Below are positions 17,106 through 53,592 of a stretch of DNA of 64,000 nucleotides, in pieces (the stretch's first letter is position 1; each line of letters starts with the position of its first letter). The stretch lies in the IMG/VR virus record IMGVR_UViG_3300044971_004534; one strand, 5' to 3'. The notes below the pieces were generated by a model that was not told where the DNA came from, searched no databases, and was given only the letters and a program-made list of their open reading frames with translations. A program made the position numbers and the translations under genes. Source of the stretch: a virus.

Positions 17106-17591
17106 ATGCAGTACAAATTATCTAAAAGCGAATGGCTCAAAATAGGCGAACAAGCTGGATGGCTGAGGATCAGCGGGGAACAGGCAGTCCTGACGAAGCA
17201 GGGGAAATCAAATGTTGCTGGTGCGGTCTTTCAGGTGATGCGTAAACCCGAGATAGCAAAGAGGATCATTGAACTTTCTAAAATCTGGAATTCCAATTCA
17301 AGCGAGTTTAGCAAGAAGCTTCAAGATCTGGAGCAAGAGATCGTTGTTGACTATCATAATTTTTTGGACACAGGAGCATCAGAAGATTTGTTCATTGACC
17401 GAATCGAGTTACGGAGTATCATTGAAAAAATCATCTATAAAATGCTTGAAGTTGGCGACTTGGGAGTTCGGGAAGCAGGCGAACAAGCTGGATGGCTGAA
17501 GGAAGCCAAGTGCTGGAAGGGCTACAAAGCCGTTGGCATGAAGAAGAAAAAGGGCAAGACCGTTCCCAATTGCGTCCGCAAGGAGAGCTGA
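17106..17591 (+). CDS. hypothetical protein with long N-terminal leader module
   Basis: MQYKLSKSEWLKIGEQAGWL at the N-terminus; the GEQAGWL core is repeated near the C-terminus before the CWKGYK...PNCV tail. Confidence 0.6.
   Translation: MQYKLSKSEWLKIGEQAGWLRISGEQAVLTKQGKSNVAGAVFQVMRKPEIAKRIIELSKIWNSNSSEFSKKLQDLEQEIVVDYHNFLDTGASEDLFIDRIELRSIIEKIIYKMLEVGDLGVREAGEQAGWLKEAKCWKGYKAVGMKKKKGKTVPNCVRKES
17145..17166 (+). repeat. 22-nt perfect intragenic direct repeat (copy 1)
   Basis: ggcgaacaagctggatggctga; copy 2 at 17478-17499; both encode GEQAGWL. Confidence 0.85.
17478..17499 (+). repeat. 22-nt perfect intragenic direct repeat (copy 2)
   Basis: Identical to 17145-17166. Confidence 0.85.
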
Positions 17592-18437
17592 ATGGGTTGG
17601 CTCAAGGCGGCGCAGACAAGTGCATGGGGCCAGAACACGAGCAGGGGTGCAAGGGAAATCTACACCGCATTGCGTGAACGTGCCAATCCCCACAGGAGCA
17701 GCGCTGAGCTGAATAAAAAATGGGGGGAGGAAATAGTGAAGATACCGGGTTACGTGTCCCGTTGGTCCGGTGGCAGCTGGGCATACGTGGACTACGACCC
17801 CCAGAAGCGAAAGAACACCGACAGGATGAATCCACTTGCCCACAAGGGAATGGAGTGGAAGCTGTACTTTACCGTCAATCCAAAGGACGGGGGCGCGGAG
17901 AGCATGGGAAACACCCTTGAGGCGTTGAAAGACCTTCCGAGACAGCTGGAGGCAAACCTTGGTCCTCATGGCGTCGCCCTTCTCTACAAGATCCCTGGAA
18001 CCTGGAGTGGATTTTTGCGGGAGAACGACACAGTCGTGATGTATCACCCGTTCGAGCCTCGCAGCAGGTGGACGGACTTCATCTCTTCCGTTGTTCGTGG
18101 CTGGATGGGCAAATGGGGACTGGAGGAAGGGAAGCGTTCGTACAACGAGGGCTTTGACTGGCACGAGCAGACGGAGTACAGGGACGGAACGCAGGTGGAG
18201 CACAAGGAGATGACGGACAGGCTGGGATGGCTGAAGCCAGAGGGATTCATTGCCATGGGGCTGGAAAGGGGTGGTGGATCATTTGGCACTACATTGGCCC
18301 GCTTCATGGAACTTGTTGGCAAGAACCCTGATGACCCGCGCTGGAAGGGCTTGGTGAAGGGGGGAGAGATCAGTATGAAGGAAGCAGCAGACTGGCTTAT
18401 TGGGCACGGCAAAGAGGTAGCACAGGAACTGATGTGA
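17592..18437 (+). CDS. hypothetical protein with short leader (MGWLKAAQ)
   Basis: ATG directly follows the previous TGA. Confidence 0.6.
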   Translation: MGWLKAAQTSAWGQNTSRGAREIYTALRERANPHRSSAELNKKWGEEIVKIPGYVSRWSGGSWAYVDYDPQKRKNTDRMNPLAHKGMEWKLYFTVNPKDGGAESMGNTLEALKDLPRQLEANLGPHGVALLYKIPGTWSGFLRENDTVVMYHPFEPRSRWTDFISSVVRGWMGKWGLEEGKRSYNEGFDWHEQTEYRDGTQVEHKEMTDRLGWLKPEGFIAMGLERGGGSFGTTLARFMELVGKNPDDPRWKGLVKGGEISMKEAADWLIGHGKEVAQELM

Positions 18438-18460
18438 CGAACACCTGTTTTGTTTTTTGT

Positions 18461-18494
18461 ATCCCCCGAAAAATTATGGAGGGGGATTTTTATT
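18461..18494 (+). terminator. terminator
   Basis: ATCCCCC-13 nt loop-GGGGGAT, then ttttatt. Confidence 0.5.
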
Positions 18495-18662
18495 ATATTG
18501 TTCTGGTTGAAAAAACATCGACCTGTTGAGATGCCCCTAAAAAAATTTTTGGCGCGTTAATACTGGGTTACTGATGGAGGGGGCGGAAATTTTTATAATC
18601 ATCATAAGACCAAAAGGGAAAGACTATTAATCAAAGCAATATAATAAATAGGGAGACTCAAT

Positions 18663-19181
18663 ATGCAATACAAACTATCTAAAGAACAGTGGTTGGAGAT
18701 CGGGCAAAAGGCTGGTTGGTTCAAAATTGCACAGCAAGAAGAGAAAGGACGTGCATTCTTCGTCACTGCTTCAGAAGAAGAAATAAAAAAATATATAGAC
18801 AGCATAGAAGAGTCGTCTGCGCAGGATCTTGCCGACAACCTTGCGGGCGAAAGAGACATGATGAGGGAGAGTGCAAATGGGGCTCGTAGGGCTGCGATGT
18901 CAGCTGATGCAGGCGGAGACGCTGATGACTACAGATTCCAGCTCAAGTTAGAAAAGCAAAAAATTGAAGTTGCAGACAAGTTTGCAAAAGCACTGGCAAT
19001 GCTTACGGTAAGATTTCCGAATGTAAAAACTCCAGAACCAGCCAAGCTCATGGACATGGCAGATTCAATGGAGACACTTTCTCAAAAAGAACATGAGCAA
19101 TCCCGAAGCCAAAGCACCTTACAGGGAGATGCAGAAAAAAGACTGAGACTACCTGGCCTGGGAGCAAACACCCCAAGATAA
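18663..19181 (+). CDS. hypothetical protein with long leader module
   Basis: MQYKLSKEQWLEIGQKAGWFKIAQ. Confidence 0.6.
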   Translation: MQYKLSKEQWLEIGQKAGWFKIAQQEEKGRAFFVTASEEEIKKYIDSIEESSAQDLADNLAGERDMMRESANGARRAAMSADAGGDADDYRFQLKLEKQKIEVADKFAKALAMLTVRFPNVKTPEPAKLMDMADSMETLSQKEHEQSRSQSTLQGDAEKRLRLPGLGANTPR

Positions 19182-19199: not shown

Positions 19200-19514
19200 A
19201 TGAACTGGTACAAAAGCGCAAGAAAAAGATACGGATCATTCCATTATGACTTTGACGGAATAGAGCTTATTAATCCCATTTGCTTTTGCTCTGGAACTGC
19301 AAATGTGGAATTTTCAATAGAAAGAGATCCAGGTGACAGATATGAGCCTCCGACCACAGATGTTGATCTCAATGTGACAGTTGAGTCACTTTACTGCACA
19401 GACGCAGAGGGTGAAGAAATTCCAGTCACGAATGAAATGGTTAGGGAGGTTGAGGCCATACTCAGAGATGAAGAACATTTGCGAGAAAAAGCCTTTGACC
19501 ACGAATTTGATTAA
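19200..19514 (+). CDS. hypothetical protein with short leader (MNWYKSARK)
   Basis: ORF track. Confidence 0.6.
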   Translation: MNWYKSARKRYGSFHYDFDGIELINPICFCSGTANVEFSIERDPGDRYEPPTTDVDLNVTVESLYCTDAEGEEIPVTNEMVREVEAILRDEEHLREKAFDHEFD

Positions 19515-21640: not shown

Positions 21641-22096
21641 ATGCAATATAAATTATCAAAGTCAGAGTGGGAATCTATAGGCGTCAATGCTGGGTGGATG
21701 AAAATTGCTGGACCTGGCGGAAGATTTCAGGCTTCCATGAGTGCAGCAGAGCAAAAGTTGTGGGCAAGCCTAAATCAGCAACAAAAAAATAATTATGCAA
21801 CATTGGATGCTGCCAATAGAGCAAGGGTTGCAGCACTGCCATTGCAGCAAGCACAACAATACCTGAACAGCATAATGCCACCAGCTGGAGGTAAAGTCCC
21901 AACAGCTTCATTTGATAATGAAATAAAGACGGCTCTTAAATTAAATGACAAAACTGATGAAAAAACACCAGAGCAGTATAAGGAAGAGTTTATAGAAAGA
22001 ATGAAGTCCATCGGGATGACAGATGAAGAAATCGAGCGTGCACTAAAATCTGGATATTTAGAAAGAATCATGAAAGGCAGAAAGAATAAAGAATGA
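21641..22096 (+). CDS. hypothetical protein with long leader module
   Basis: MQYKLSKSEWESIGVNAGWMKIAG (track start 21629 adds MENY). Confidence 0.6.
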   Translation: MQYKLSKSEWESIGVNAGWMKIAGPGGRFQASMSAAEQKLWASLNQQQKNNYATLDAANRARVAALPLQQAQQYLNSIMPPAGGKVPTASFDNEIKTALKLNDKTDEKTPEQYKEEFIERMKSIGMTDEEIERALKSGYLERIMKGRKNKE

Positions 22097-23336: not shown

Positions 23337-23341
23337 TAAAG

Positions 23342-25322: not shown

Positions 25323-28004
25323 ATGAATATAGAAAAAACTGCACAACTTAATTGGTTTCGAGGAATAAGGGATCGCATTCGTGGCAACAAGCCAGATGAA
25401 AGCGGTCAAGAATTGTCATTTAATGAACAAGAACTGCGTGGGCTTGAAGAAATAGAAAGAAGAAAGACTGAAGAAGAAAGAAAAAGAGTTGATAAGCTGG
25501 TCCAAGAATCAAAAGAAAGAGCTGAAAGCTTTGGTAGACCTGACAATATTCCCGGAAAATTTGAATTAAGTAGATCTAGTATTCAAAATATATTGTCTAT
25601 GGACAGAGATACTTTATGGCATAAGCTTTGTGCATCTTTTGAGAATTGTTCTCCTTATGTTTCTGAAACTACGGCACAAAGGGGAAGAATAATAAGATAT
25701 CTTGTAGACACTAGGCAAGGCGATTATCGAGGTGGCTGGGGAAGTGTGCTTAGGAGCATAGATTTTCTACTGCAAGGATTAGAATTAGATATACGTAATG
25801 CAGGCAATAATAGTAAAGCGGCAATATCTCATAATAATATGCAAGAAATTTTTACCAATAGAGATTGGCTCATGGCAAATAAAGATGGAATTCAACGAGC
25901 CTATGCACAAGCATCTCCAGACTCTATTAATAAAGAAGTTTTAAATAAATTTTTAACAAATAAACAATCGTATTATGCTCGACGTGATGCAGCTATAGAA
26001 GTATGGGCATCATTTTTAAAAAATAAATATCAATATTACTATGGAAATACATTAAGTGATCAGTATTTTTATAATATTCATCTGTATGCGGATAGGTTAT
26101 GGGAAGATTTTAAATTATATTTTCGATTGATGTCAGGTAATCTATTCCACAACATAGGCATTCAATTAGGTAAAAAATACTTACCAGAAGATATGCAATC
26201 AATTTCTGATGGTGTTCATGCAATAGATGTAAGTATGTTCGACATAGCAAAGCCAGCTAATTTAATGCAATCACGCAGTAATGCAAGGGGTGAAAATGAT
26301 ATCTTTTATAATTGGACCGTGAATAAATGGAAAGAATTTGTAGAAGATACACATTTAATGCTAAGCGTCTTTGGATTTAATTTAAAAGGTGTGTCAAATA
26401 TTAATAATATAAATGGAGAAAATTTATATTACAATATGATGCAAAAAATAATTATGATAGAAAATATTGTTAATAGAGATCCTTTTATAAGTCATATTTT
26501 TAATAACAGTAGATTAGATTTAGGAGATAGCTATTATATATATGCACAAATTAAAGACAAAATGAGTGCTGATCATAATCCAAATAGAGAAGAATATTTA
26601 GTTTCTATATTAAATCAAATTTATGTTAATCAGCATGGAGGGTACTCAAGAGCAATATCTGAAGCTTCAGATGAAAGTTTGAGATCGGCGGCAGATAGGG
26701 TGCCATTTGCAGTAGAACATATTTTATTGCATTTAGAATTTGGTGAAAATATGTATAATGTTATTAATAATTTTGACCAATATCAATCTGCTCTAAATTC
26801 ATACAGAGAAAAACAGCATTCAGCATTAAAAAAAGTAAGAAACGTTCTAGCCAATCCTGATTTAACACAGATGTCTCCCGAAGAGGCAAGACAGTATTTT
26901 GTAGAAAAACTTAATAGACTAGCGAATAGGGAGTTTGAAGGTAGCAATATCGAAAAGGCAAAGCAAGAGCAAATTCTTGATTCTCCATTTGAGCACACAT
27001 CAGTGATAAGACCGTCTACCTTTCCTGGTCAAGCAGCATTTAATAGCAACTCCTTGCCTGAATTGCAAGGAACTCCAATTTCTTTTAATATAGCAATTTA
27101 TCCAAAAAAGAAAGAAAATGACCCGGAAAACTTTGCACAAGTTCTTGCTCCAGGTGGGCACGCACAAGATGGACTAAACTTTCATCATCAGAATATTCCG
27201 TCATTAGAAAATAAGAAATATTATAGTCATATACTTGGCTGGATAGGTGGATGGGTTGACGTAGTAGGCTCGAACATGTATATAGCAGAAATTCAAAGCG
27301 ACGTTATGCAACATACGTCTTACATGAAAGATCCAGAAAAGTCAAAAACAAAATTGAACGAAGAACTTAAAAAGCAAATGCAAGAATTGCAAAAAGAAAA
27401 AGACAATCTTGCTAAACAATCTACAGAAGGTATAGAAAAATTCTATGATAAAAGAATTGAAGAGTTAGAAAAAAAGAGAGATAGCGCAAATAATGAGGCA
27501 ATGAAGCAGCAAATGGATACTGCAATAAAAAAATTAACAGAACAAAAAAACGCTAAAGAAGATCCGTGGGTTAAACTAAGAAAAAAAATAAAAGACATAG
27601 AAAATGTTATTGTTGAAATTAAAAATCAAATTCAAGAGCTTATTGATTATGAAAGAAACACTAACGATCAATGGAGAAAAAGGCCGCAGTTTGCTGATGT
27701 AAAGTCAAAAATAGAAAATAGATTTTCTGAATATGTCGATGTTTTTTATAATGAAGCAATTTACTATTGTGCTCAACTCAAAATTAAAGGTTTATGGATA
27801 GTGCATTCAGATCTTTTAGCTGCAGTCTGGCGACATTTTGCAACGGCTGATACCGTAGAAATGTATAAGAAAATATACGACAAACGAGCGATGGAGATGG
27901 GAGCAGAAAAGAAGGGCAACTGGTGGCACTTAGATCTTACCAAGAAAATGCCTAAGTATGCAAGCACAAATTGGTATCAAAGGACTAAAAATGGGATGGT
28001 ATAA
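25323..28004 (+). CDS. giant hypothetical protein A (paralogue of B)
   Basis: About 890 aa; N-terminus MNIEKTAQLNWFRG; C-terminal ~340 aa align block by block with 27991..31086. Confidence 0.7.
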   Translation: MNIEKTAQLNWFRGIRDRIRGNKPDESGQELSFNEQELRGLEEIERRKTEEERKRVDKLVQESKERAESFGRPDNIPGKFELSRSSIQNILSMDRDTLWHKLCASFENCSPYVSETTAQRGRIIRYLVDTRQGDYRGGWGSVLRSIDFLLQGLELDIRNAGNNSKAAISHNNMQEIFTNRDWLMANKDGIQRAYAQASPDSINKEVLNKFLTNKQSYYARRDAAIEVWASFLKNKYQYYYGNTLSDQYFYNIHLYADRLWEDFKLYFRLMSGNLFHNIGIQLGKKYLPEDMQSISDGVHAIDVSMFDIAKPANLMQSRSNARGENDIFYNWTVNKWKEFVEDTHLMLSVFGFNLKGVSNINNINGENLYYNMMQKIIMIENIVNRDPFISHIFNNSRLDLGDSYYIYAQIKDKMSADHNPNREEYLVSILNQIYVNQHGGYSRAISEASDESLRSAADRVPFAVEHILLHLEFGENMYNVINNFDQYQSALNSYREKQHSALKKVRNVLANPDLTQMSPEEARQYFVEKLNRLANREFEGSNIEKAKQEQILDSPFEHTSVIRPSTFPGQAAFNSNSLPELQGTPISFNIAIYPKKKENDPENFAQVLAPGGHAQDGLNFHHQNIPSLENKKYYSHILGWIGGWVDVVGSNMYIAEIQSDVMQHTSYMKDPEKSKTKLNEELKKQMQELQKEKDNLAKQSTEGIEKFYDKRIEELEKKRDSANNEAMKQQMDTAIKKLTEQKNAKEDPWVKLRKKIKDIENVIVEIKNQIQELIDYERNTNDQWRKRPQFADVKSKIENRFSEYVDVFYNEAIYYCAQLKIKGLWIVHSDLLAAVWRHFATADTVEMYKKIYDKRAMEMGAEKKGNWWHLDLTKKMPKYASTNWYQRTKNGMV

Positions 28005-31000
28005 GTTTGCACAACTTCATGCAATGAAGTGCTCTCCAGTAAACTTGAAAAAGTTACTGCAATTTGCACACACTCCAGGACAGGCTTATTTGTTCGAGAT
28101 GGGCGAAGAACATTCTGCTATGCAAAAACACATAGAAAGACTTGGCGGAAAAAGATATAAAATTCAATTTTTACTCAACACGTTTGATGCAATGCTTACC
28201 GATCTAGATAACACAAAATTAGATTTTGAAGTAGATCAAGATAGGATTGCAAATCGCATAGATTCCGACTATGTAGAAGAATCATATGGTTATATTTTTG
28301 ATGAAGATGACACTAAGTTTTGGGAAAACATAGATGGCATAAATGATCAAGTTTTAGAATTTATTGAAGAATCTTGGGATGTTTCTGAAGATGACTTTGA
28401 GAGTCGCTTATTTCATTATCCAGTAAGTAGTCGTGAACCAAATAATTCAAAAGAACTCGTTAGTCTCAAAGACATTTCAGAAGAACTGTCTAGTTTTGCG
28501 TATTTTGGAGATATGATTTCTTGCATAGGCAATTTGAAACATGATAAATATGTAGCTCGTGATATCATGAGAGAAATAGCGGATATAGATATTGATTTAA
28601 GGTCAATGGGAGAATCAGCAACCGGCATTCATGTTCATACGTGGGCTAAAAATAAAGGCATTGATCTGACGCTTGCTGTGGTTCAAAAAGCAGCAGGTGG
28701 AGAACAAAATGTTGAGATCGCAAAATACGATCCAGATTCAGCAAAACAAATAGCACAAAAAGCTTACTCTAATGTTGCAAATTCTTGGGTTGACAGTATA
28801 GAAAAATTACCACATTCTAAAACAGATTTAGAAGAAGCAATTGAAGAAGCATTCAGAGATCAGGTAAAAGAATCATGGTGGGAGTCTAACAAACAACGCT
28901 TTATGGAAGATGCAGTTGATAATGAAATTGAAAGTACTGCGGATTCATTTAATTATGATGATAGAAGATGGGCTAAAAACACATTGCCCGCAGAATCAGT
29001 AGACCCAAACGTCAGACATCATGTAAGTAAAACTTTTACGGAAGCATTAAAGGAGCACAGCTGGCTAGATAGAGACGAAGATTCTGGTCATGTACAGGTT
29101 GAAGCTAGTAGCTATTTTGCAAACTTAGGAGTTAAAGATTGGAGTAAAATAGCGGATGATATACAGGAAATGGCGGATGACCACGCAATGACTGGTTACG
29201 AAGATTATGTAAAAGAAATAAGATCATATACATCTATGATTAATTGGATTGTAGCAAGTGATCCAGACTTGTCTGCAATCTTTTCTGATGAAGACGCAGA
29301 CCCGACAACACTTACGCAGACTGCTACGGATTTGGGGCAAATAGTTAAAACTTCATATGAGGTTATATCTCTTATGCCTCAGGACGATGCAAGACGCATG
29401 GAGCAAAGCATAACTGCAGAAAATCCAGAGATTGAAGACTGGATTAAAGCCTTAAGAGAAAGAGAAGAAGTAGAAAGACAGGCGAGAGAAACTCAAGCTG
29501 CCATGCTTGCGGAAGAAGAGGCAAGAAAAGCTATACAAAGATCAAATAGAGAAAGAATTGAAAAAGAAGTTTCTGAAGAGTCTAAAAAAATTAATGATCC
29601 AAATATCGGCTCAAGGTCTTTCACAGAAGAGCAAAAGCAGCAGGCAAAAACTCAAAACATTATTGGTAAACCATTTGAGCACATGTCAACATTGCGGGTT
29701 GATCAAAAATACCCTGGAGTGAGCGCCTTTGTGTTAAAGCCAGTACCTATGGAAAGTGAAGTTCCTTATAAGACTTTCCATATTGCTATATATCCAAAAA
29801 AGGAGCAAAGCGATCCGACAAGACTGCATGATGTCTTTGATAGAAGTGCGGGTTTAAATTTTCATGGATTTAGTTTTCCTGAACATGTGAATGAAAATTA
29901 TTACGATCTTATTGGATGGGTTGGCGGCACTATTGACCTTTATAATAAGATAATGTACGTCACAGAAATACAAAGTGATGTAATGCAAAATACCCCTCGC
30001 ATGAAAGATGTTTCCAAGAGCATTGTTGCTTTGAACGAGGGAAAAAATAGCTTATTAGCTGAAGCTGAAAAAATAAAAACATATATTACCACAAATGATA
30101 TCAATGCATATTATGACAAGAGAATACAAGATTTAAAATTAAAAATTCAATCCATGAGTGACAGTCCTGCTGCAATGCAAATGCAGCAAGCTGTTTTAAA
30201 ATTAGAAGAGTTAAAGAATAAGGGTGTAGACCCTTTTGAAAAAGAAAGACAAAAACTACACGATATTGACAATAAACTTAAAGAGATTAATAGGCAAATA
30301 AATGATATAGAAGAATTTGATAAGAAACCTTCTGCCAAACTAAATAAACCTCATCTTTCAGAATTAAGATCTCGAATAGAAAATAGATTTACTGATTGGG
30401 TAGATACCTTCTATAATGAAATATTTATGTATTGTTCTCGCTTAGGAATAAAACATTTATATATAGCAGCTTCTTCTTATTTGTATCTAACATGGAGACA
30501 GTATGCCAAGGCATCTACACTAGAATTGTATAAAAAGATATATGATACAAAGGCTGAGAAGTACGGAATGCGTAAAGTACATTATAAGGGTGTCACGTAT
30601 TGGCATTTAGATCTATCAGAAAACATGCCAAAGTTTGCGAGCAAAGAAAGGTTACAAATGTCTAAAAATAATTGGTATAGGCAAATTAAAACTGCAATGG
30701 ATTTTAGCAGTATTTACATTGATGATATAAAAAGAAAATTTTCTAATGGAGAGATTACGGAAGAGCAAATGCAAGCGCAGATACGTGAAAGATATATGGA
30801 ACACACACAAGATCCAACTACTCGTGACCCAAAACTGTTTATTATAGAAGCAAAAACTTTCTTTGATACGATTAAGCATATTGAAGGCAGAGAAAGGGGT
30901 GGAGAAGATTCTGAGTTTTCAAAAGCTCAATTTATGAGGGAAGCATTGGGTCAGTTTTTAGAATTTAATGGTAAGAAATATACAGACAGAGACGGCAAGC

Positions 31001-42738: not shown

Positions 42739-43920
42739 ATGGCAATTATAAAAACAAGTTCTACAACTGGTAAAAAAACCGTCATACTAAACGACCAAGA
42801 ATGGGTCGCTCAAGGGATTATTAACGGATGGTTCACTAATGATGAATTAAAAGAAATCACATCATTTGCATCCTCATTAGCAACTGATGCAAGAATCAAA
42901 GATCAACTATTGACAAAAATAGCATATATAGATGACTACACTCAGGCAGAACAAATGCGTAGATCAGAAGCTGCTCGCAAAGGAGCAGAAACAAGGCGCA
43001 GGAATAGAGCTGCCCAGCAAGCTCCAGCAGCAGCTCCAGCAGTAGCTCCAGTAGCAGCTCCAGTAGTAGCCCCAGCGGTAGCAGCGCAAATAAGAGATCC
43101 ACGCACTGGAATGATAGTGAGACAGACTCCAGAACAGATGATTGGAAGTATGCAAAGAAACAGGTTTGGAGATGCTGCCAGAGCAAACTATCAAAGATTG
43201 CAAAGCATGCCACCAGCTCAAAGAGAAGCTTTTATGAGTCAATTGCAGCAAACTCCACAAGGTAGACAGGCATTGACTCAAATAGCTCAATTTGAAAAAA
43301 ATGTTGCACCAGGAATGTCTGGATTTGTTCAGAGAATTGACCCAAAAACAGGAAAACCTATATCTCAATTAGCAGGCTTAGGACAGGATGTAGCTGCAAA
43401 AACAAGAGCTATTGGACAAGCAGTAAAGGGTACGCCGGGGCAAATTGCCAGAGTTGCTCCTCAGACGGCGCAAAACCTGAGCACGTTGGGAAGAGGGGTA
43501 CAGACTGTTGGTTCAGGAGCTGCAAATGTTGGAAGAATGGGGCTTCAGGGACTTGGGGCTGGTCCTCAAATAATGGGGGGTGTTGGCATTGGTGGTTTGC
43601 TAATGGGTGCGGGCGGCGCATATTTAGGAGCAAAAGGATACCAATATCTAAGAGACAGATCTATAAATAATCAAGTTATTAATAAGGAATTTTTAACTAA
43701 CCCACAAAAAGTTAATTCAGCTCTTGTAGCTAGCTCTCAGCTTAAATCTTTACAGGGAGCGAAGGGTGCTACAAATGCTATAGATGACGCCATTGAAAGA
43801 TTAAATGCAACAGTACTTGCAGCAATCAATAAAATGAATGAGCAGTCACCGCTTGCTCAACAAGTGGTTCAACAAACGCTGCAAGGCATGCAGCAACAAA
43901 GACCTCAACAACAGGCTTAA
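42739..43920 (+). CDS. hypothetical protein with (A-P-x-x)n linker and Gly-rich TM
   Basis: ORF track; ILNDQEWVAQGIINGWF is a leader variant. Confidence 0.6.
   Translation: MAIIKTSSTTGKKTVILNDQEWVAQGIINGWFTNDELKEITSFASSLATDARIKDQLLTKIAYIDDYTQAEQMRRSEAARKGAETRRRNRAAQQAPAAAPAVAPVAAPVVAPAVAAQIRDPRTGMIVRQTPEQMIGSMQRNRFGDAARANYQRLQSMPPAQREAFMSQLQQTPQGRQALTQIAQFEKNVAPGMSGFVQRIDPKTGKPISQLAGLGQDVAAKTRAIGQAVKGTPGQIARVAPQTAQNLSTLGRGVQTVGSGAANVGRMGLQGLGAGPQIMGGVGIGGLLMGAGGAYLGAKGYQYLRDRSINNQVINKEFLTNPQKVNSALVASSQLKSLQGAKGATNAIDDAIERLNATVLAAINKMNEQSPLAQQVVQQTLQGMQQQRPQQQA
43021..43080 (+). repeat. in-frame 12-nt tandem repeat x5 (A-P-x-x)
   Basis: gctccagcagca gctccagcagta gctccagtagca gctccagtagta gccccagcggta. 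Confidence 0.85.
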
Positions 43921-43938: not shown

Positions 43939-44502
43939 ATGGAAAACAAAAAATTTAAACTTACAAAAGAAGCTTGGCAAAATGCCGGTGTTAAAAAGGG
44001 CTATTTTAAAAGTGCAGAAGAAAAAGATAGACTGCAAAAAGAAGCATTTGCTCCGTTAGTGACAGGGCTACTGGGGGGAGTTGCTGGTATGGCTGGCAAT
44101 TATCTTTATGATAAATATAAGTCTGGAGACTGGAAAGAAAGACTTTTTGGCTACGGAATACCTCAAGAAAAGATTAATCAAATAAAGCAAGTTTTACAGC
44201 AGTCTGAGGCTACGTTTGCAAATATAGCTGGAATGTCTCCACAGGTTGATGAGGCAATCAAGAATTTTAAAGAGCAGACCCAAGCTTCTTTGCAAAGAGC
44301 AGAAGCTGAAAATGCAGCTGCAGGAAAGGGCAATGCTCAATTGGCCGCAGATCAACTCGCCAAGCAGCAACAGCAAGGCCAAGCTCAGTCAGGACAAACT
44401 CCACAGCAGGGAGCACAGCCTGGTCAAGCTCAGCAGGGGGCTCAATCTGAGCAGGGGCAGCAGACAGGAAAGCCGCCTGAACTATTGGAAAAACCAGAAT
44501 AA
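43939..44502 (+). CDS. hypothetical membrane protein, Q-rich C-terminus
   Basis: FKLTKEAWQNAGVKKGYFKSA is a leader variant. Confidence 0.6.
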   Translation: MENKKFKLTKEAWQNAGVKKGYFKSAEEKDRLQKEAFAPLVTGLLGGVAGMAGNYLYDKYKSGDWKERLFGYGIPQEKINQIKQVLQQSEATFANIAGMSPQVDEAIKNFKEQTQASLQRAEAENAAAGKGNAQLAADQLAKQQQQGQAQSGQTPQQGAQPGQAQQGAQSEQGQQTGKPPELLEKPE

Positions 44503-45689: not shown

Positions 45690-46454
45690 ATGACCTGGTA
45701 TAAATTATCACAGCAATTCTCTGGCAGTACGTATACGGTTGTAGAAGGGGATAGTCTATCTGGCATAGCAAAAAAAATGCTGCATGATATTAATCGATGG
45801 CCAGAAATACAAAAACTTAATAATATTGATGACCCAAATAAGATACAGCCTGGTCAAGTTATAAAATTACCAGAAAAAAAAATACAGACAGATCAAGATA
45901 ATAAAAAAACAAAAATTCAGAATACAGCAAATAATGTTGACGTTTTTGAAGAGCTAAAAAAAGAAATCTCAAGTGGAGAGGGCAACTACTACTCATACAA
46001 TAGGGGGGTAGCTGGCGATACTCCAAAACCAAAAATAGATATTACCAAATTAACAGTGGGACAGATTATTAAAATGCAAAATACTAGTGGTTCAGACAAA
46101 AAAAAGCTTCTTTTTGCTGTTGGAAAATATCAAATGACACCAGCTACACTTGCAGAATCAATAAGGCATCCTAAAGTTGGAGTAAGCTTAAATGATTTAT
46201 TTACTCCAGATGTACAAGAAAAACTATTTATGTATTTACTATATAAAAGAGCCAACTTAATGGCCTATATAGAAGGTAGAAGTGACAACATAGATGCTGC
46301 CGTCAATGACTTGGCCGCTGAATTTGCGTCTTTACCAACAACTTCCGGCAAAGGCAGATACGATAAAGACAAGGCAGGAAATATGGCAAGTGGTGGACTT
46401 GCTAGAGTAGAAAGAATAAAGTCAATACTTTTAAATATAAAAAATAATCGTTAA
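45690..46454 (+). CDS. LysM-domain peptidoglycan hydrolase-like protein
   Basis: MTWYKLSQQ leader; LysM YTVVEGDSLSGIAKK...IQPGQVIKLP; GKYQMTPATL resembles the G(R/A)YQ box of lytic transglycosylases/lysozymes. Confidence 0.6.
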   Translation: MTWYKLSQQFSGSTYTVVEGDSLSGIAKKMLHDINRWPEIQKLNNIDDPNKIQPGQVIKLPEKKIQTDQDNKKTKIQNTANNVDVFEELKKEISSGEGNYYSYNRGVAGDTPKPKIDITKLTVGQIIKMQNTSGSDKKKLLFAVGKYQMTPATLAESIRHPKVGVSLNDLFTPDVQEKLFMYLLYKRANLMAYIEGRSDNIDAAVNDLAAEFASLPTTSGKGRYDKDKAGNMASGGLARVERIKSILLNIKNNR

Positions 46455-46458
46455 TTAT

Positions 46459-47640: not shown

Positions 47641-47653
47641 AAGGAAATTATAC

Positions 47654-49792: not shown

Positions 49793-50720
49793 CTCAAATA
49801 TTCCAGTTGAAGTGATTGAAGATGCAAGATCGTTGGCAGAACGCAACGGCACGACTATTGGTATTTGGGAAGCACAGCCAAATAAGGGAAACAGAGGCTT
49901 TGTTGTGATGCCTACAGAAAACATGCATAAGTTTACTGAAAGAATAGAGATAAAAGGTTTTACTACAAATCCCACCGGTGAAGAGATTATTCCTAATCCT
50001 ATAACAACTATTGATCCACCCGTCAAATACAGAAGAGGTACTGATCTTTATAGAAGGCAAAGATCTGGGTGGAGAAAGCAACCAAAAACTGAACAAGAAA
50101 TTGGAGTAAGAAATATTGAATTAACAGCTCCAGATTTGAGGCTTGTGGCTAAAGTAAAAATGAATAAAAACGAGTGGGTTAAAATTGGAGAGTCTCAAGG
50201 TTGGATTAAGTCTAAAGATGATCCGGCAAATATGAAAGTGGCTCTCCCTGTTCTTCCCTTGCTAGGAGTTGCTGCTAATTTAGCTTCTCCTTTTATTATA
50301 AATTGGATGATGAGCTCTGGAGAGCAACCATCGCAAGATCCACAGCAGTTTCAGGGACAGATGCAACAAATGAGTCAAGAAGTGAAACAGCAAGCAGATC
50401 AAGTGTTAAAGCCGACGATACAGGCGATACAGCAGCAGGCTGCTAGATTAAATGCATACTGTGCTAATGATACTCAGTCTCCACCATGCCCACCAGATGG
50501 AGAAGTAAAAGATATAAATAAATTCAAACAAAAATTAACTCAAATACAGCAAAAAATGAAAAGCACACAATTTAGCAACGATCCAATGTATGTGTGTCAG
50601 CTATATAGAGAAGCACTTGAATTAAATTCTTGTGCTGCATCTGTTATTGGCATGATTAATGAAGTTAAAAATAATATGCAGAATATGGAATTTAATCCTG
50701 CAGCGAATTTAAGACTGTGA
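49785..50720 (+). CDS. hypothetical protein with internal Met + leader module at codon 126
   Basis: Internal ATG at 50160 opens MNKNEWVKIGESQGWIKSKDD. Confidence 0.55.
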   Translation: MSSSNIPVEVIEDARSLAERNGTTIGIWEAQPNKGNRGFVVMPTENMHKFTERIEIKGFTTNPTGEEIIPNPITTIDPPVKYRRGTDLYRRQRSGWRKQPKTEQEIGVRNIELTAPDLRLVAKVKMNKNEWVKIGESQGWIKSKDDPANMKVALPVLPLLGVAANLASPFIINWMMSSGEQPSQDPQQFQGQMQQMSQEVKQQADQVLKPTIQAIQQQAARLNAYCANDTQSPPCPPDGEVKDINKFKQKLTQIQQKMKSTQFSNDPMYVCQLYREALELNSCAASVIGMINEVKNNMQNMEFNPAANLRL

Positions 50721-50729: not shown

Positions 50730-52214
50730 ATGATTAAGAAGAGCATATCTGAAGAATTTTTGAGAAGCCAAGATCCAAGGCTACTTTCTCCTCTTATGTC
50801 TGGAGACAGCAAGTCTTATGCTACTGTAATGATGTATAAATCTTTAGATCAAATGGACGCAAGCGCAGAGATGAAACAAGCTTTAAGTAAGATTGTAGAA
50901 GATGCAAAAGTTAAATTTCCTGATTTTTCCTTTAATCAAGTCCCTTATTATTGGCTCATCAAAGCTTCTAAAGCAAAATATGCTGCTATTAATATACGCA
51001 GCTTTGATGGTAAAACAATTCCAATATTAATAATTCGCCAACATAAAGATAAGGGAGTTGTAATTGGTTATGATTATGTCAACTTAAATAGTGGTCAATT
51101 AGTGTATGCAAGATCTGCTGAATTAATCCAGCCAGTTACCGAAGCATTGCATGGCATGAAGTCGGAAAGTTTAAGTACACTAATTAAGCTCAATAGGGCT
51201 ACTCAGTTTCTTATTAGAGACAAAGAGTCTTGGGCTAGGAATGAAAGGCTTGCTGCTTATGAAAGGGGAGATGTTTCCAATCTTATCCCAGCCATATCTA
51301 TGTTGCAAAAGTGTGAAGAGATATTGACACTACGCATAGAGAGATTGAAAAACATAGTCATTTATTATCAAAATCAAAGTAACACAATTACCTCAGAAGG
51401 ACCACCATCTGTTTTTGAAGATGTGGCTAAGCTTATTGATGAAGAAATTCAGACAAAAGGCTCAAAGTTTATTAAAACAGAACAAGACGCAATACATGCA
51501 TTAGTCATGAGATACTTAGGTAAGTCTGGTGAATTTGAACAAAAAATAAAGTCTGGATCACTTTCAAATATCTTGCCAGATCCATCTGGAAAGCAAAGAC
51601 ACAATGTTAAAGATATACTAGAAGTTGCTTTTAAAATTGTTAAAGAAATTGATGCAGAGGCTGCAAGAAAAAGAGAATCTAGAAAAACATACACTAAAGA
51701 AAGAACTGAAGCTATAGAAAAACCTCAAGAGTTACCAGATACAGAATCTCACCCAATTTTTAAACAGATTACTGCTCCAATAACTGAGGAAAGTTTTAAA
51801 GATATTCTACCTGGAAACATCAAAGGATTTCAACATGCAGGCATGTGGATAGGTGAAAAATATGCAGTAGAGATTAATGAAACAAACTTAAAATTAAATG
51901 CCATGAATAAGATGCTATCAGCTGTTCAGTCAATAATAAAAGTTTTACAGTTAAAGAGAGATACGAAAAAACTTTCAGTAAGTAATTTTAGCAAACAAGA
52001 TCTTAGTGAACTAAGAGACGCTCTCGCTGCATGCATGACTCTTGTAAATTCTTATAAGCAAAGTGTGGTAACAAAAGAAAACAAACTTAATAAGAATATA
52101 GTTCATTCCATATTTGGAGATGCTGCAATGGACTTTTTTGTAGCAAGGTATATTGCAGTAATGATCAAATATATAGAGATGGTGTTCGTTAAATCATATA
52201 AAGAGGCAACATGA
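50730..52214 (+). CDS. hypothetical protein (494 aa)
   Basis: ORF track. Confidence 0.55.
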   Translation: MIKKSISEEFLRSQDPRLLSPLMSGDSKSYATVMMYKSLDQMDASAEMKQALSKIVEDAKVKFPDFSFNQVPYYWLIKASKAKYAAINIRSFDGKTIPILIIRQHKDKGVVIGYDYVNLNSGQLVYARSAELIQPVTEALHGMKSESLSTLIKLNRATQFLIRDKESWARNERLAAYERGDVSNLIPAISMLQKCEEILTLRIERLKNIVIYYQNQSNTITSEGPPSVFEDVAKLIDEEIQTKGSKFIKTEQDAIHALVMRYLGKSGEFEQKIKSGSLSNILPDPSGKQRHNVKDILEVAFKIVKEIDAEAARKRESRKTYTKERTEAIEKPQELPDTESHPIFKQITAPITEESFKDILPGNIKGFQHAGMWIGEKYAVEINETNLKLNAMNKMLSAVQSIIKVLQLKRDTKKLSVSNFSKQDLSELRDALAACMTLVNSYKQSVVTKENKLNKNIVHSIFGDAAMDFFVARYIAVMIKYIEMVFVKSYKEAT

Positions 52215-52675
52215 ATAATTGGTATAAAATTTCGCAAGCAAAAGGAGCTCCTCCCCCGCCGCCACCACCCCCGCCACCGCCGCCCGGAGTACCTCCGCCA
52301 CCTCCTGGAGGTGCTGCTCCTGCCGGTCCTTCTGAGCAGCGCGTAGGAACAGTTTCAGGAGTAGACGCAGAAGAAGTTAATGAGATTAAAAAAGATGATA
52401 AAAAATTGCTTAAAAAATTAAATAAGCATTTTAAAAACGCTATCGATTCTGGTCACGATATTGAATTGTCTGCAATTATGGCAATTATGGCAAATGGATC
52501 TACGTTAAGTCCTGGGCAGCTAGATATAGCAGAAACATTTGACCCTGATTTCCCCGAACAAGATCCTCCCTTCATAAGGTCAATCATAGGAATTCATTTG
52601 GGGACTAAGGCGCCAGGTCAGGCTACTCCTGATGGAGCCACAGGAGCTCCACCACCGCCTCCTCCAGGTCTATAA
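52211..52675 (+). CDS. poly-proline protein with short leader (MNNWYKISQ)
   Basis: 12 consecutive Pro codons at 52250-52285, then GVPPPPPGG; C-terminal GAPPPPPPGL. Confidence 0.55.
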   Translation: MNNWYKISQAKGAPPPPPPPPPPPPGVPPPPPGGAAPAGPSEQRVGTVSGVDAEEVNEIKKDDKKLLKKLNKHFKNAIDSGHDIELSAIMAIMANGSTLSPGQLDIAETFDPDFPEQDPPFIRSIIGIHLGTKAPGQATPDGATGAPPPPPPGL

Positions 52676-52676
52676 A

Positions 52677-53309
52677 ATGGAAAAGTATCCATTTAGTTTA
52701 CCAGAACTTAAGTATGAATACAGTTTTCTCGAGCCGGAAATATCTCGAGAGACTATGAAGTTGCACCATAGTAAGCATCACAAGTCTTATGTTGAAAAAC
52801 TTAATGAATTTGTTAATGGTAACGATTTTTTAATGGAATTACCCATAGACCAATTAATAAGTAAAAAAACTTTAGATGAACTTGATGATGATTTAGCTCA
52901 AAAGATTAGAGACTTTGGTGGTGGTCACATGAACCATATCATGTACTTTAATATGTTTGAAGGCGGTCATAAAAAAGTAGGAAAAATGCTAGAATCTCTT
53001 ATTAAGAGAGACTTTGGAGATTTTAAAACTTTTGAAAAAGAGTTTAAGCAAAAATCTCAAGACCACTTTGGATCTGGATGGTGCTGGCTTATTTTAAACA
53101 AACATGGTCTTAAAATAAAGACAACAACCAATCAAGACAGTCCATTAAATACAGAAGTATGCAAAGTCATCATGGGTGTAGATCTGTGGGAGCACAGTTA
53201 CTATGTTGATTTTAGAAATAGAAAAAAGGAATATATAGACAAAATTTGGGAAAAGATAAATTGGAGAGACCTAGATAACATAATTTTGGAGGCAGAATAT
53301 GTCAAATGA
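52677..53309 (+). CDS. sodA/B-like: Fe/Mn superoxide dismutase
   Basis: PFSLPELKYEYSFLEP, HHSKHHKSYV and DLWEHSYYVDFRNRKKEYIDKIWEKINW. Confidence 0.85.
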   Translation: MEKYPFSLPELKYEYSFLEPEISRETMKLHHSKHHKSYVEKLNEFVNGNDFLMELPIDQLISKKTLDELDDDLAQKIRDFGGGHMNHIMYFNMFEGGHKKVGKMLESLIKRDFGDFKTFEKEFKQKSQDHFGSGWCWLILNKHGLKIKTTTNQDSPLNTEVCKVIMGVDLWEHSYYVDFRNRKKEYIDKIWEKINWRDLDNIILEAEYVK

Positions 53310-53592
53310 AGATGATGCACAAAACTGGTACTTAAGATCTTTGCAGAATATTGCTGACAGCATAGGTCAAGCAAGAATGACAAAATCTGCTTCTCTCAAA
53401 AAAGCTATATCTGAATCATTTGATGTTTCTATATCAACTGATCAAGCAAAAGATATGATGAAACTTATGTCTGAAAATTACAAATCAAAAGACAGAGTAA
53501 GTTACATGTCTTCTAAGCTTGTAGAAATTCTTAAGATAGAAGAATCAGATTGCAAAAAAATTGCATCGTTTTTATCTAACTTCAAGAAGTAA
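53299..53592 (+). CDS. hypothetical protein (QNWYLRSLQ near N-terminus)
   Basis: ORF track. Confidence 0.5.
   Translation: MSNEDDAQNWYLRSLQNIADSIGQARMTKSASLKKAISESFDVSISTDQAKDMMKLMSENYKSKDRVSYMSSKLVEILKIEESDCKKIASFLSNFKK

Follow-up and report, generated by a model that had tools for sequence, protein, structure and literature searches.

Why should a large share of the genes of one virus begin with the same few residues? In the stretch of DNA analysed here (64,000 nucleotides of an uncultivated huge bacteriophage, hereafter the window), about one third of the genes carry at their start the peptide MNWYKxAQ or a longer version of it. A first-pass annotation had counted at least 18 otherwise unrelated proteins with this leader, and all the peptides that it quoted were recovered at their positions. 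We retain about 15 robust tagged proteins, and about 19 at most when variants are included. The proteins are indeed unrelated beyond the leader, except that those at 25305 and 27991 are paralogues and those at 42739 and 43939 belong to one group of low-complexity proteins.

A shared peptide in two nested forms

The sharing of the peptide is real and far above chance. In the 46 genes of the 16.2-54 kb region, a loose version of the motif occurs 11 times compared to 0.48 expected from composition-preserving shuffles, with a maximum of 3 in any of 2000 shuffles. Within the first 30 residues of the same genes, 8 copies are found compared to 0.05 expected, which contradicts an origin by chance from AT-rich composition. 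No copy was found outside this cluster, either in the 29 genes of 1-16.2 kb or in the 11 genes of 54-64 kb, so that 26 kb of flanking DNA are motif-free. At each degenerate position of the tag both synonymous codons are found, and the codon of residue x is free. Replacements are conservative (Y/L/M/F, N/G/S/T, A/S), and the swaps of Y to L/M/F and of N to G/S/T change codon positions 1 and 2. Codon bias within the tag is mild (AAC 56% compared to 24% in gene bodies, GCA 70% compared to 36%). Since synonymous codons vary at every degenerate position, conservation resides in the peptide and not in the DNA: the tag peptide itself is under selection.

The short form is M-N-W-Y-K-x-A-Q and the long form, of about 24-25 residues, M-x-Y-K-L-S-K-x-E-W-x-x-I-G-x-x-A-G-W-φ-K-x-A. 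They share a core, [N/G/S]-W-[Y/L/M/I/F]-K-x-[A/S]-[Q/K], which either stands alone after the initiator Met or closes a module of about 25 residues with the pattern K-[L/I]-S-K-x-[E/D/Q]-W-x-x-[I/V/M]-G-x-x-[A/S]-G-W-φ-K. The short form is the commoner and is equally conserved; Trp is residue 3 in about 90% of cases. Lysines are frequent in the long module, in which two Trp and two Gly are invariant; its AlphaFold2 model has a short helix at residues 7-16, predicted with confidence (pLDDT 87-90 across the first 20 residues). The description as an N-terminal leader does not hold for every copy: the long module also occurs internally, at C-termini or twice in one protein, and tag copies are also seen at domain junctions. 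Zn-ribbon or basic Cys mini-modules frequently adjoin the long module. No conserved residue follows the tag, and a T4-type (L/I)xE site is absent from it. Tagged genes are packed in tightly coupled tandem arrays. The copies of the window are given below, those marked as new being additions to the first-pass annotation.

17106..17177, plus strand: long-form tag MQYKLSKSEWLKIGEQAGWLRISG, N-terminus of a 161-aa ORF (17106-17591); matches the long-form profile A4
17478..17510, plus strand, new: partial internal copy GEQAGWLKEAK in the same ORF, directly before the C-terminal CWKGY..VPNCV mini-module; this junction recurs in P0009, P0012 and P0014
17592..17615, plus strand: short tag MGWLKAAQ, 281-aa ORF (17592-18437); orthologue L013:1922 (46% identity) starts MNWYKCAQ
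18663..18734, plus strand: long-form tag MQYKLSKEQWLEIGQKAGWFKIAQ, 172-aa ORF (18663-19181)
19200..19223, plus strand: short tag MNWYKSAR, 104-aa ORF (19200-19514); orthologue L001:1906 also has MNWYKSAR
21641..21712, plus strand: long-form tag MQYKLSKSEWESIGVNAGWMKIAG, ORF 21629/21641-22096; relatives P0001, P0011 and P0022
22093..22116, plus strand: short tag MNWYKLAQ, 255-aa ORF (22093-22860); orthologue L001:5036 starts MNWYKFAQ
25323..25373, plus strand: variant MNIEKTAQLNWFRGIRD, N-terminus of an 899-aa giant protein; apparently a degenerate tag with a second NWFR copy after it; L001:8357 keeps it as MDTEKTAQLNWFRKLRD
27969..27989, plus strand, new: NWYQRTK close to the end of the 899-aa protein, four residues ahead of the stop; aligns on reading with NNWYRQIK of its paralogue
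27991..28014, plus strand: short tag MGWYKFAQ, 1031-aa giant protein (27991-31086) whose start overlaps the end of the preceding 899-aa paralogue; orthologue L001:11106 starts MQWYKFAQ
30667..30690, plus strand, new: internal NNWYRQIK in the 1031-aa protein, at the junction of a conserved C-terminal domain and an extension of about 130 aa
31331..31390, plus strand: long-form tag KISKYDWINIGIHAGWIKTS near the N-terminus of a 150-aa ORF (31310-31762); orthologue L001:14577
32805..32864, plus strand: probable divergent long-form variant MNKFSWTLNDTGWSIQKVAQ, 178-aa ORF; N-terminus kept in L001 (MIKFAWTLKESGWSIEKLAQ) despite only 39% protein identity
35169..35189, plus strand, new: internal SWYKEAK in an AAA_33 kinase (ORF 34695-35312), just before a C-terminal NPNPWAVC..C mini-module; conserved in L001
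35727..35750, plus strand: weak variant SWNKLAEN, ten residues into a 329-aa ORF (35700-36689); NWNKLVSE in L001; weakest member
39067..39096, minus strand, new: NRWYNFVKNI, C-terminus of a 1201-aa SNF2 helicase (39064-42669); an L180 SNF2-family protein of 1196 aa, its counterpart by syntenic position only, ends in a canonical tag (..SSWYKLAHMSEIYF)
42739..42843, plus strand: extended long form MAIIKTSSTTGKKTVILNDQEWVAQGIINGWFTND, low-complexity protein of 393 aa whose hydrophobic stretches are rich in glycine; P0072 (MKIIKTASGKKKIKISKSEWKSIGRKAGW) is arranged alike
43939..44019, plus strand: long-form variant MENKKFKLTKEAWQNAGVKKGYFKSAE, 187-aa Q-rich protein
45690..45713, plus strand: short tag MTWYKLSQ, LysM-domain protein (45690-46454); the L180 counterpart has MIISKNGWYKKAQ
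50148..50216, plus strand, new: long-form copy AKVKMNKNEWVKIGESQGWIKSK within ORF 49785-50720, if the listed start holds; translation may instead begin at the Met at 50160; the counterpart in L180 opens with MQGETMKVRMSKSEWLKIGESQGWM
52211..52237, plus strand: short tag MNNWYKISQ, 154-aa poly-proline protein; the L180 counterpart starts MKNWYKTSQ
53320..53343, plus strand: variant QNWYLRSL, eight residues into a 97-aa ORF (53299-53592); L180 keeps NWY (..DKNWYSRCL)

Most of the weak variants are thus backed by orthologues, SWNKLAEN at 35727 remaining weak.

Distribution and portability of the tag

The exact MNWYKxAQ coding pattern occurs in 11 stretches of 596 Gb of cellular genomes, for about 17 expected by chance on our own estimate, and 8 of the 11 are out of frame or in tiny ORFs. 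By comparison, 36 stretches were found in IMG/VR contigs of up to 548 kb, often several per contig, and at least 120 in metagenomes. A profile scan detected the long form (profile A4) in 1,980 clusters among 1.84 billion representative proteins; no long form was found in 50,697 GenBank phage records. The tag is therefore confined to viruses, cellular genomes being at chance level. The carrier phages come from lakes, sediments and sea water and range from 24 to 50% GC with near-identical tags; on our best reading they form an uncultivated clade of large and huge bacteriophages. The peptide had been put forward as having no described function, and we found no match to it in Pfam, NCBIfam, PHROGs annotation, the PDB or full-text literature.

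Both forms are portable: they are gained, lost, duplicated and relocated between the N-terminus, domain junctions and the C-terminus. The tag may be present or absent among orthologues and among paralogues of one genome. For instance, one genome holds a tagged (L001:2223) and an untagged (L001:2759) paralogue, and the start of window ORF 21069 resembles the untagged copy (MKEHPY.. compared to MREHPY..). AAA_33 kinases and 2-hydroxyacid dehydrogenases likewise exist in tagged and untagged versions, and the related kinases L005:2837 and L028:3864 bear the tag at the N-terminus, unlike the internal copy at 35169. The GWLK and NWYK cores are interchangeable, since the orthologue of the MGWLKAAQ protein (17592) starts with MNWYKCAQ.

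Cargo and comparison with known systems

The tag is preferentially borne by host-modifying and counter-defence enzymes, including anti-CBASS and anti-Thoeris-like ones. A set of 137 tagged proteins contains at least 10 GNAT, 6 ART-PolyVal, 4 AAA_33, 3 matches of 2H/Acb1/2'-5' ligase type, 3 phage lysozymes, 2 SLT and 2 cREC, whereas 135 untagged neighbours contain at most one member of each family (Fisher p = 0.005 for GNAT, 1e-5 pooled). Tad6 and Zeta_toxin appear in a first set of tagged proteins, and further bearers are small basic proteins, peptidoglycan hydrolases, a C39-like peptidase and low-complexity proteins with hydrophobic glycine-rich stretches. The untagged neighbours are sigma factors, LAGLIDADG endonucleases, methylases and sugar enzymes; more generally replication, nucleotide-metabolism, transcription and selfish (homing) endonuclease genes lack the tag. 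The tiny proteins P0009 and P0041, which consist only of the tag and a lysine-rich mini-module, resemble small basic internal proteins.

The first-pass annotation had compared the tag to the capsid-targeting sequence (CTS) of T4 internal proteins. This ten-residue N-terminal sequence packages the T4 internal proteins and Alt, a diverse, fast-evolving counter-defence set, and can be transferred to foreign proteins (PMC3012670, PMC9024508). As in IPI, IPII and IPIII, a short N-terminal peptide is the sole feature common to otherwise unrelated proteins, and the cargo lends the analogy further weight, although it may be no more than an analogy: ADP-ribosyltransferases, GNATs, anti-CBASS and anti-Thoeris-like enzymes, kinases and lysozymes make up an arsenal such as T4 and P1 package by way of N-terminal signals (PMC3012670, PMC9024508). 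The tag has no similarity to the CTS (MKTYQEFIAE) and no conserved Glu or (L/I)xE protease site; it has dozens of carriers per genome region compared to a handful in T4, and it comes in two nested forms with internal and C-terminal copies, on proteins that may be packaged. In phage P1, a signal longer than 9 residues and not exceeding 30 sends DarB, a large methyltransferase/helicase-type anti-restriction enzyme, into the head for injection, its N-terminal 30 residues being sufficient for encapsidation (PMC9024508). The long form has a comparable length (about 25 residues) and an SNF2 helicase bears the tag here, but the P1 Dar proteins share no consensus (PMC9024508), whereas ours is very strong over thousands of proteins from many phages. 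Phage ART, ParB, SNF2 and peptidase effectors have been predicted to be packaged and injected early in infection (PMC5512222). The cargo resembles that of such polyvalent proteins and MuF-fused toxins (ART-PolyVal, SNF2, lysozyme/SLT, peptidases, methylases, ParB-like; Iyer et al. 2017, PMC5512222), and a ParB-like motif can be read in P0062 and P0134. In those systems the domains lie in one giant polypeptide or are fused to a MuF/portal handle, whereas effectors here are usually separate small proteins with the same 8- or 25-residue tag.

Possible readers of the tag

We tentatively favour a portable docking tag with a phage-encoded reader, most likely used to load effectors into the virion for co-injection. 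Since the tag is confined to one viral group, a phage-encoded partner is favoured over a host one. Such a conserved partner would most likely lie in the assembling head, as scaffold, core or inner capsid surface, and the tagged proteins would enter the virion and be injected together with the DNA when the next cell is infected. Several observations weigh against virion loading, in addition to the lack of similarity to the T4 CTS. Neither in the window nor beside the tagged arrays of related loci (about 0.5 Mb) did we recognise a head-morphogenesis gene. Certain cargo proteins would be unusual in a virion, such as glucose-6-phosphate dehydrogenase, 2-hydroxyacid dehydrogenase and proteins with a transmembrane-like segment immediately after the tag (L010:5325, L027:2056). 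Packaging about one third of the accessory genes, including proteins of about 1000 aa, would make a very large load. Known homologues of some of the cargo, namely T4 Acb1 and Tad proteins, are made after infection and are not known to be packaged, and the enrichment in effectors fits another role of the tag on early host-takeover proteins equally well.

It is possible, though doubtful, that the tag docks proteins to a phage-encoded hub outside the virion (compartment, condensate, factory, membrane platform or multi-enzyme "effector complex"), as a short linear motif of which the long module would be a higher-affinity version. Portability, virus specificity and selective cargo fit this equally; docking motifs that raise avidity typically occur, as here, in internal, duplicated and C-terminal copies, and metabolic enzymes and membrane proteins suit an intracellular destination better than a capsid. 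However, no compartment-type gene was recognised among the part of the window's gene products that was scanned, the conserved unknown at 50730 (the sole one tested) is limited to a narrow sub-clade, and the tag is missing from replication and transcription proteins, which a replication compartment would be expected to house.

Recruitment of a host quality-control factor, the tag being a chaperone handle or degron that sets the folding or lifetime of potentially toxic effectors, appears unlikely. Trigger factor, SecB and DnaK prefer octamers with aromatic and basic residues, ClpX has an N-motif-1 of the pattern polar-φ-φ-basic-φ, and a cut in front of the Trp would leave an N-degron. N-W-Y-K-L/I/F would fit the ClpX motif and the trigger factor/SecB preference, Trp is residue 3 in about 90% of cases, and toxin-like cargo (ART, Zeta_toxin) needs a dose limit. 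Yet the motif of a universal factor would be expected in hosts and other phages, whereas the short form is at chance in the cellular genomes and the long form is absent from the GenBank phage records; near-identical tags span the whole GC range of phages with presumably different hosts, and internal and C-terminal copies conflict with a free-N-terminus signal.

We give a similarly low, slightly smaller weight to the long module being a small functional domain (nucleic-acid or membrane binding, oligomerisation) and the short form its minimal remnant, with no sorting role. The lysine-rich composition, the invariant Trp and Gly, the predicted helix, the repetition within proteins and the association with Zn-ribbon or basic Cys mini-modules agree with it. 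Eight residues are however too few for an autonomous domain, and this form is the commoner and equally conserved; cargo enzymes have their own complete folds, untagged orthologues exist, and no similarity to any solved structure or family was found.

A processing or export leader, either of double-glycine type, processed by a C39-like peptidase, or recognised as substrate by the S8 protease (19602), is very improbable. Double-glycine leaders follow the consensus LSxxELxxIxGG (e.g. the pediocin leader, MKKIEKLTEKEMANIIGG), which LSKSEWLKIG of the long form superficially resembles; like Nif11 and NHLP leaders and the cargo-loading peptides of encapsulins and microcompartments, they join one conserved peptide and many cargoes to one reading machine. 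A C39-like peptidase is itself tagged, and the tagged cluster of the window, like that of L001, also contains the S8 protease gene (69% identity between the two). The cargoes of those systems are short peptides or a few dedicated cell enzymes, whereas those here are large viral enzymes, cytoplasmic and of up to about 1200 aa; the short form has neither Gly-Gly site nor helix, and no double-glycine leader model matched. The export signal entertained by the first-pass annotation has little likelihood, as the tag lacks the hydrophobic core that Sec or Tat would require, and the phage's exported proteins carry classical Sec signal or lipoprotein peptides. The link that it suggested with the S8 protease found no evidence in the window and L001. 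On reading, this enzyme has a signal-like N-terminus and dockerin-like repeats; since these point to secretion, it would not meet cytoplasmic substrates.

Conservation at the nucleic-acid level (promoter, translation-initiation enhancer or recombination site at the start codon) or an AT-rich artefact has the least probability of all. The TATAAA-like string within TGG-TAT-AAA, the mild codon bias and the tandem arrays speak for it, but it is already contradicted by the free variation of codons, including first and second positions, by copies inside and at the ends of ORFs, by the shuffles (0.05-0.5 copies compared to 8-11 observed) and by the GC range of the carriers.

The docking tag stays our preferred, if tentative, reading. 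Because the peptide is found only in viruses and mainly on host-disarming enzymes, we read it as an address label, one that seems to be undescribed.

Copies of the tag and composition of the genome

The distribution of the N-terminal tag among the genes of the window was analyzed. Two forms were considered: a short form, MNWYKxAQ, and a long form of about 25 residues which ends in the short-form core. The first-pass annotation had claimed that one N-terminal peptide heads several otherwise unrelated proteins of a single phage; this was confirmed for about 15-19 proteins between 17 and 53 kb of the window, and all the peptides it quoted are present.

Copies of the tag in the window (start positions; "added" marks copies beyond the first-pass list)
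17592, 19200, 22093, 27991, 45690, 52211: short form at the gene start, six genes
17106, 18663, 21641, 31331: long form, four genes
42739, 43939: divergent long forms, the former of an extended type beginning IIKT-S-GKK, as in P0072, a tag-bearing protein from the profile searches
25323, 32805, 53320: variants, the tag region being kept in orthologues otherwise only 39-50% identical
35727: weak variant
17478: partial internal copy (added)
35169: SWYKEAK (added)
50148: long form, N-terminal in the counterpart from the related locus L180 (added)
27969, 30667, 39067 (minus strand): NWY-type copies near C-termini (added)

The SNF2-family counterpart in L180 terminates in a canonical SSWYKLAH, and related contigs contain tandem arrays of 3-7 tagged genes. 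The comparison with chance suggested in the first-pass annotation was made by shuffling residues gene by gene over the 46 genes at 16.2-54 kb (2000 trials). The loose motif was observed 11 times in this region for 0.48 expected (maximum 3 in 2000 shuffles), and 8 times within the first 30 residues for 0.05 expected; the 40 genes flanking the region on both sides contain no copy. The leader is clearly far more frequent than in composition-preserving shuffles. The genes of two giant paralogues (899 and 1031-1042 aa) at 25305-28004 and 27958-31086 overlap, by 47 nt or, with 27991 as the start of the second, by 14 nt; the proteins have a common C-terminal domain of about 380 aa (..IAEIQSDVMQ.., ..RIENRF..) without family match.

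The window belongs to the large genome of an uncultivated bacteriophage; its sequence recurs across many samples, on contigs that reach 280 kb, and the phage is present in at least 37 sample blocks. Among its products are a sigma-70-type factor, an SNF2 helicase, a LysM protein, an S8 protease and an AAA_33 kinase; ThyX, a class-II-like ribonucleotide reductase, a dUTPase, an HNH endonuclease and an Fe/Mn superoxide dismutase are added by reading the translations and by the precomputed Pfam annotation available for identical contigs. Megablast of the 17-41 kb region against GenBank phages found no close phage, and tblastn with the long consensus over 50,697 GenBank phage records found no cultured carrier; the nearest phage proteins to the SNF2 helicase share only 22-24% identity with it. 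The GC content, about 55% over 1-16 kb, falls abruptly to about 35-45% at ~16000-17100, exactly where the tagged genes start. An assembly chimera was rejected as the cause of this jump: since four independent assemblies have the junction in identical form, the two-compartment composition of the genome is real.

In the 55%-GC module (800-14800, plus strand) an intergenic element, GCCTCGTTTTCCCCC-N~17-TTG(A/G)GGCA, occurs at least 20 times, just upstream of, or touching, the ATG of nearly every small gene. This element is probably a phage-specific promoter or regulatory cassette, and none of the genes of the module is tagged. Upstream of tagged operons, a candidate GTATAAA-type promoter gave 13 matches for 5.7 expected, only three of them intergenic. 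A sugar-metabolism block at 44529-49436, recognized from translations and partial annotation, comprises ORFs resembling glycosyltransferases and, at 47654, one resembling UDP-galactopyranose mutase; the block is flanked by tagged genes and missing from the syntenic L180. Three minus-strand genes, at 23690-24328, 33730-34497 and 38169-38489, read as envelope-type proteins from their sequence only: among them are one with a PEP-CTERM-like C-terminus, one outer-membrane beta-barrel-like protein with a signal peptide and one lipoprotein with an LTAC lipobox.

Anatomy, portability and viral restriction of the peptide

The tag is conserved as a peptide. Its codons vary freely (TAT/TAC, AAA/AAG, AAT/AAC, CAA/CAG and all four GCN are in use, the x codon being free), and its substitutions (Y/L/M/F/I, N/G/S/T, A/S, K/R) are conservative at the amino-acid level yet require changes at first or second codon positions. 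With the shuffles, this codon analysis leads us to reject a DNA-level or compositional origin, and a nucleic-acid or chance origin is essentially excluded. The short form consists of Met, N (88%, else S/G/Q), an invariant W, Y (94%), K (97%), x, A (88%, else S) and a last position that is Q in 76% of cases and otherwise K/S/R/N/G, with no conservation beyond; these percentages overstate invariance because the set was partly gathered by exact pattern. The long form reads M-x-Y/I-K-L/I-S-K-x-E/Q/D-W-x-x-I/V/M-G-x-x-A-G-W-φ-K-x-A, with W10, G14, G18 and W19 invariant. Orthologues exchange MGWLKAAQ and MNWYKCAQ, which shows that the NWYK short form and the GW-φ-K end of the long one represent a single element. 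The tag is followed by polar residues or directly by the first strand of an enzyme fold: in enzymes it abuts the fold, as in MNWYKKAQNKKTLYIMRG.. compared to the untagged MANSKTLYIMRG.., and in the G6PD protein as in MNWYKWAQPQKNNSDAFVFFGASGDL.

Tagged and untagged versions of the same protein exist. The related locus L001 contains, in one genome, two paralogues of the window gene at 21069, one tagged (2223) and the other not (2759), and both versions are found among AAA_33 kinases and 2-hydroxyacid dehydrogenases. The leader described in the first-pass annotation proved mostly, but not strictly, N-terminal: a census of the strict motif over about 1.1 Mb of related loci gave 286 N-terminal copies, about 20 truly internal ones at domain junctions, and 3 at C-termini. 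In seven related loci (L016:611-4315, minus strand, L077, L082, L096, L153, L176 and L179) large proteins have a second, internal NWYKKAQ at a domain boundary, followed in three of them by the same C-terminal domain of about 75 aa (NWYKKAQINGGKVKYGPDGSFF); they look like fusions of formerly separate tagged genes.

The exact coding pattern of MNWYKxAQ was then scanned in three collections. IMG/VR contains 36 stretches on about 27 contigs, several of 296-548 kb; all are at ORF starts, often 2-3 within a few kb. In 596 Gb of cellular genomes only 11 stretches were found, for about 17 expected by chance on our own estimate; 8 are spurious, and the other three, which are good, come from small contigs (3.6 and 19 kb) that were binned into MAGs and that we take to be phage. 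Metagenomes gave more than 120 stretches among the matches listed, and 494 kb of metagenome loci contain 304 motif copies, 246 of them directly after Met, and 192 distinct tagged ORFs of median length 139 aa. A profile search, as proposed in the first-pass annotation, was run with the long form over 1.84 billion representative proteins and retrieved 1,980 clusters at E<=0.001. The carrier contigs have scattered gene families in common, and their GC content ranges from 24 to 50%. Carriers with complete or nearly complete genomes include NCBI JBFDDZ010001906.1 (280 kb, the phage of the window itself), JGI Ga0620605_0000062 (370 kb), IMGVR_UViG_3300037247_001786 (461 kb) and MDTD01002963.1 (488 kb).

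Functions of the tagged proteins

To characterize the cargo, two sets of tagged proteins were compared with 135 untagged neighbours from the same loci. The first set (88 proteins) includes GNAT (3), 2-hydroxyacid dehydrogenase (2), cREC_REC (2), AAA_33 (2), DUF5661 (2), G6PD, the Thoeris inhibitor Tad6, ART-PolyVal (L009:6985), LysM, SLT, methyltransferase, PolyA_pol and Zeta_toxin. An independent set of 137 proteins contains at least 10 GNAT, 6 ART-PolyVal, 4 AAA_33, 3 phage lysozymes, 2 SLT, 3 DUF5661, 2 cREC_REC, 3 HTH, one C39-like peptidase and one DnaJ, as well as 2H-SAK, Acb1 and 2'-5' RNA ligase (3 each, overlapping families that probably represent the same proteins). The untagged neighbours include LAGLIDADG (3), sigma-70 (3), DNA methylases, sugar enzymes, a resolvase, transposases and NUDIX. 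No more than one of them was counted for each of GNAT, ART-PolyVal and AAA_33, these control counts being upper bounds among the top 25 families listed. Tagged and untagged proteins differ in Fisher tests, both for GNAT (p = 0.005) and for the effector-type families taken together (p = 1e-5). Counter-defence and host-modifying families (GNAT, ART-PolyVal, Acb1/2H, Tad6, AAA_33, cREC, lysozymes) are thus enriched over untagged neighbours. Many tagged cargoes have no assigned function, and a few are metabolic enzymes.

Carriers of the long form are mostly ORFans, and many are proteins of 40-80 aa in which the module is joined to a Zn ribbon or to a lysine-rich mini-module with two Cys. Long forms also head G/A/P/Q-rich proteins with hydrophobic glycine-rich stretches, both in the window and directly downstream of it, in locus L055. 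The L055 run lies on the minus strand at 15402-19117, about 5-9 kb past the 3' end of the window; one protein has a long (TPNP)n repeat, several have hydrophobic glycine-rich stretches, and three begin with long-form variants (MIKISQTQWLASGIRKGY, ..IKMSSREWLQVGLDKGLF and MIKLSSADWLKIGIENNW). Three distinct C-terminal mini-modules rich in lysine, at 17511-17588, 35190-35309 and 36540-36686, come after tag copies or close tagged proteins: CWKGYKAVGMKKKKGKTVPNCV, which matches PHROGs 9737, 4359 and 727; NPNPWAVCTESVG..KYESCV; and the DUF5872-like PSAYANGWAVQWYKKRGGGW. In metagenomes, mini-modules and tags form Lego-like tiny proteins.

Possible destinations of the tagged proteins

Selection on a tiny portable peptide, its restriction to one viral group and the bias of its cargo argue together for a docking tag, which would be read by a phage-encoded partner. 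Loading of the tagged effectors into the virion, followed by injection with the DNA, is tentatively ranked first, by analogy and at somewhat less than an even chance, because the cargo resembles known or predicted head-carried, injected phage proteins. [quoted passage not shown] The last combine 2-15 disparate effector domains per polypeptide (Iyer et al. 2017), whereas the tagged proteins, most of them small, have one tag and one effector drawn from an overlapping domain repertoire. Pairs of tagged and untagged paralogues recall T4 Alt, which is packaged, and ModA and ModB, which are not.

The T4 CTS is both needed and enough to bring a protein into the scaffolding core, is cut off after assembly, and has an N-terminal consensus of about 10 residues, MKTYQEFIAE. 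The likeness to it drawn in the first-pass annotation stands for a portable N-terminal peptide common to diverse, defence-related cargo; it does not extend to the sequence, which has nothing in common with this consensus beyond Met, nor to the (L/I)-x-E site of the prohead protease, the tag having no conserved Glu in or after it and variable residues past A-Q. The tag also differs in scale, in occurring as two nested forms, and in its tolerance of positions inside proteins and at C-termini. By the sequence and protease-site criteria it falls outside the T4-type CTS family. It would belong among shared targeting peptides, and the earlier statement that it has no described function is borne out: neither tag nor module matches a curated family or structure in Pfam, NCBIfam, PHROGs or PDB sequence searches, and literature searches by motif strings and by concepts returned nothing.

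Neither a head gene nor a protease site nor a partner turned up in the window proteins and tagged-gene neighbours examined: PHROGs gave nothing on ten window proteins of no assigned function, and Pfam found no capsid, portal or terminase among 54 large neighbours of tagged genes. The product of 50730-52214 was considered as a receptor. It has a constant length of 494 aa, 37-91% identity in 30 metagenomic relatives and a confident predicted model (pLDDT 79.6) of long helical bundles and a beta domain, to which Foldseek found no similar fold in PDB or BFVD; only two IMG/VR contigs contain this protein, which so cannot be a general tag receptor. Part of the cargo (G6PD, a dehydrogenase, transmembrane-type proteins) is awkward for a capsid. 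A hub outside the virion is the next destination to be considered, although a rather unlikely one; a partner other than the head would mean a new kind of viral sorting system.

Recruitment of a host chaperone or protease is improbable. The tag fits the polar-φ-φ-basic-φ pattern of a ClpX N-motif, but functional-looking copies are also internal and C-terminal, the motif is at chance level in cellular genomes, and an N-degron needs a free N-terminal L/F/W/Y whereas Met-Asn precedes the Trp of the tag. A small autonomous domain ranks just after and is about as improbable; in its favour, AlphaFold2 on a 30-residue alignment gave a confident predicted helix at 7-16 (pLDDT 87-90 across the first 20 residues), and the long module is doubled in about 25 of the 150 best representative proteins, two of these having it at the C-terminal end. 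A processing or export leader is very improbable. Compared to double-glycine leaders (LSxxELxxIxGG) the long form matches only LSxxEφxxIG and the short form has no Gly; no double-glycine leader model in NCBIfam or Pfam matches the tag, no ABC exporter was recognized among the window gene products scanned, and the single C39-like peptidase match is itself tagged cargo. Neither does the tag fit the layout of Sec, Tat and lipoprotein signals, in which a positively charged n-region precedes a hydrophobic h-region (with an RR motif or lipobox in addition). The export signal envisaged in the first-pass annotation is made unlikely by a tag that runs straight into polar residues or an enzyme fold, signal-like peptides being found on other window proteins (19602, and 23690, 33730 and 38169 on the minus strand). 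The same annotation had pointed to the subtilisin-type S8 protease at 19602-21059 as a possible tag protease; its signal-like N-terminus and two dockerin-like repeats argue against action on cytoplasmic tags, and we rejected it. This protease is 69% identical in L001, at another position inside the tagged cluster, and is more conserved than its neighbours.

In its broadest form, the docking interpretation would describe a clade of huge phages with its own protein-sorting system: an 8-residue address with a 25-residue high-affinity version, which roughly one in three accessory proteins would bear and a dedicated phage receptor would read. This receptor would gather the arsenal of counter-defence and host-modifying enzymes in the virion, for co-injection, or in a new intracellular compartment. 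Such a system is conceivable, though doubtful. If real, the tag would give bacterial viruses their first clade-wide sorting signal defined by sequence, and it would be a ready marker for finding hundreds of new anti-defence effectors. To our knowledge, such effector delivery has so far been described for no more than a few proteins of T4 and P1; a sorting signal would show how very large phages organise or deliver dozens of effectors. "Guilt by tag" would then make candidate counter-defence or host-takeover factors, mostly ORFans, of about 2,000 long-form clusters and many short-form proteins, the minimal 8-residue tag might load foreign proteins into phage particles, and a widespread environmental phage group without cultured member would have its marker. 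Whatever the mechanism, a strictly virus-specific peptide under strong selection represents unexplained biology.
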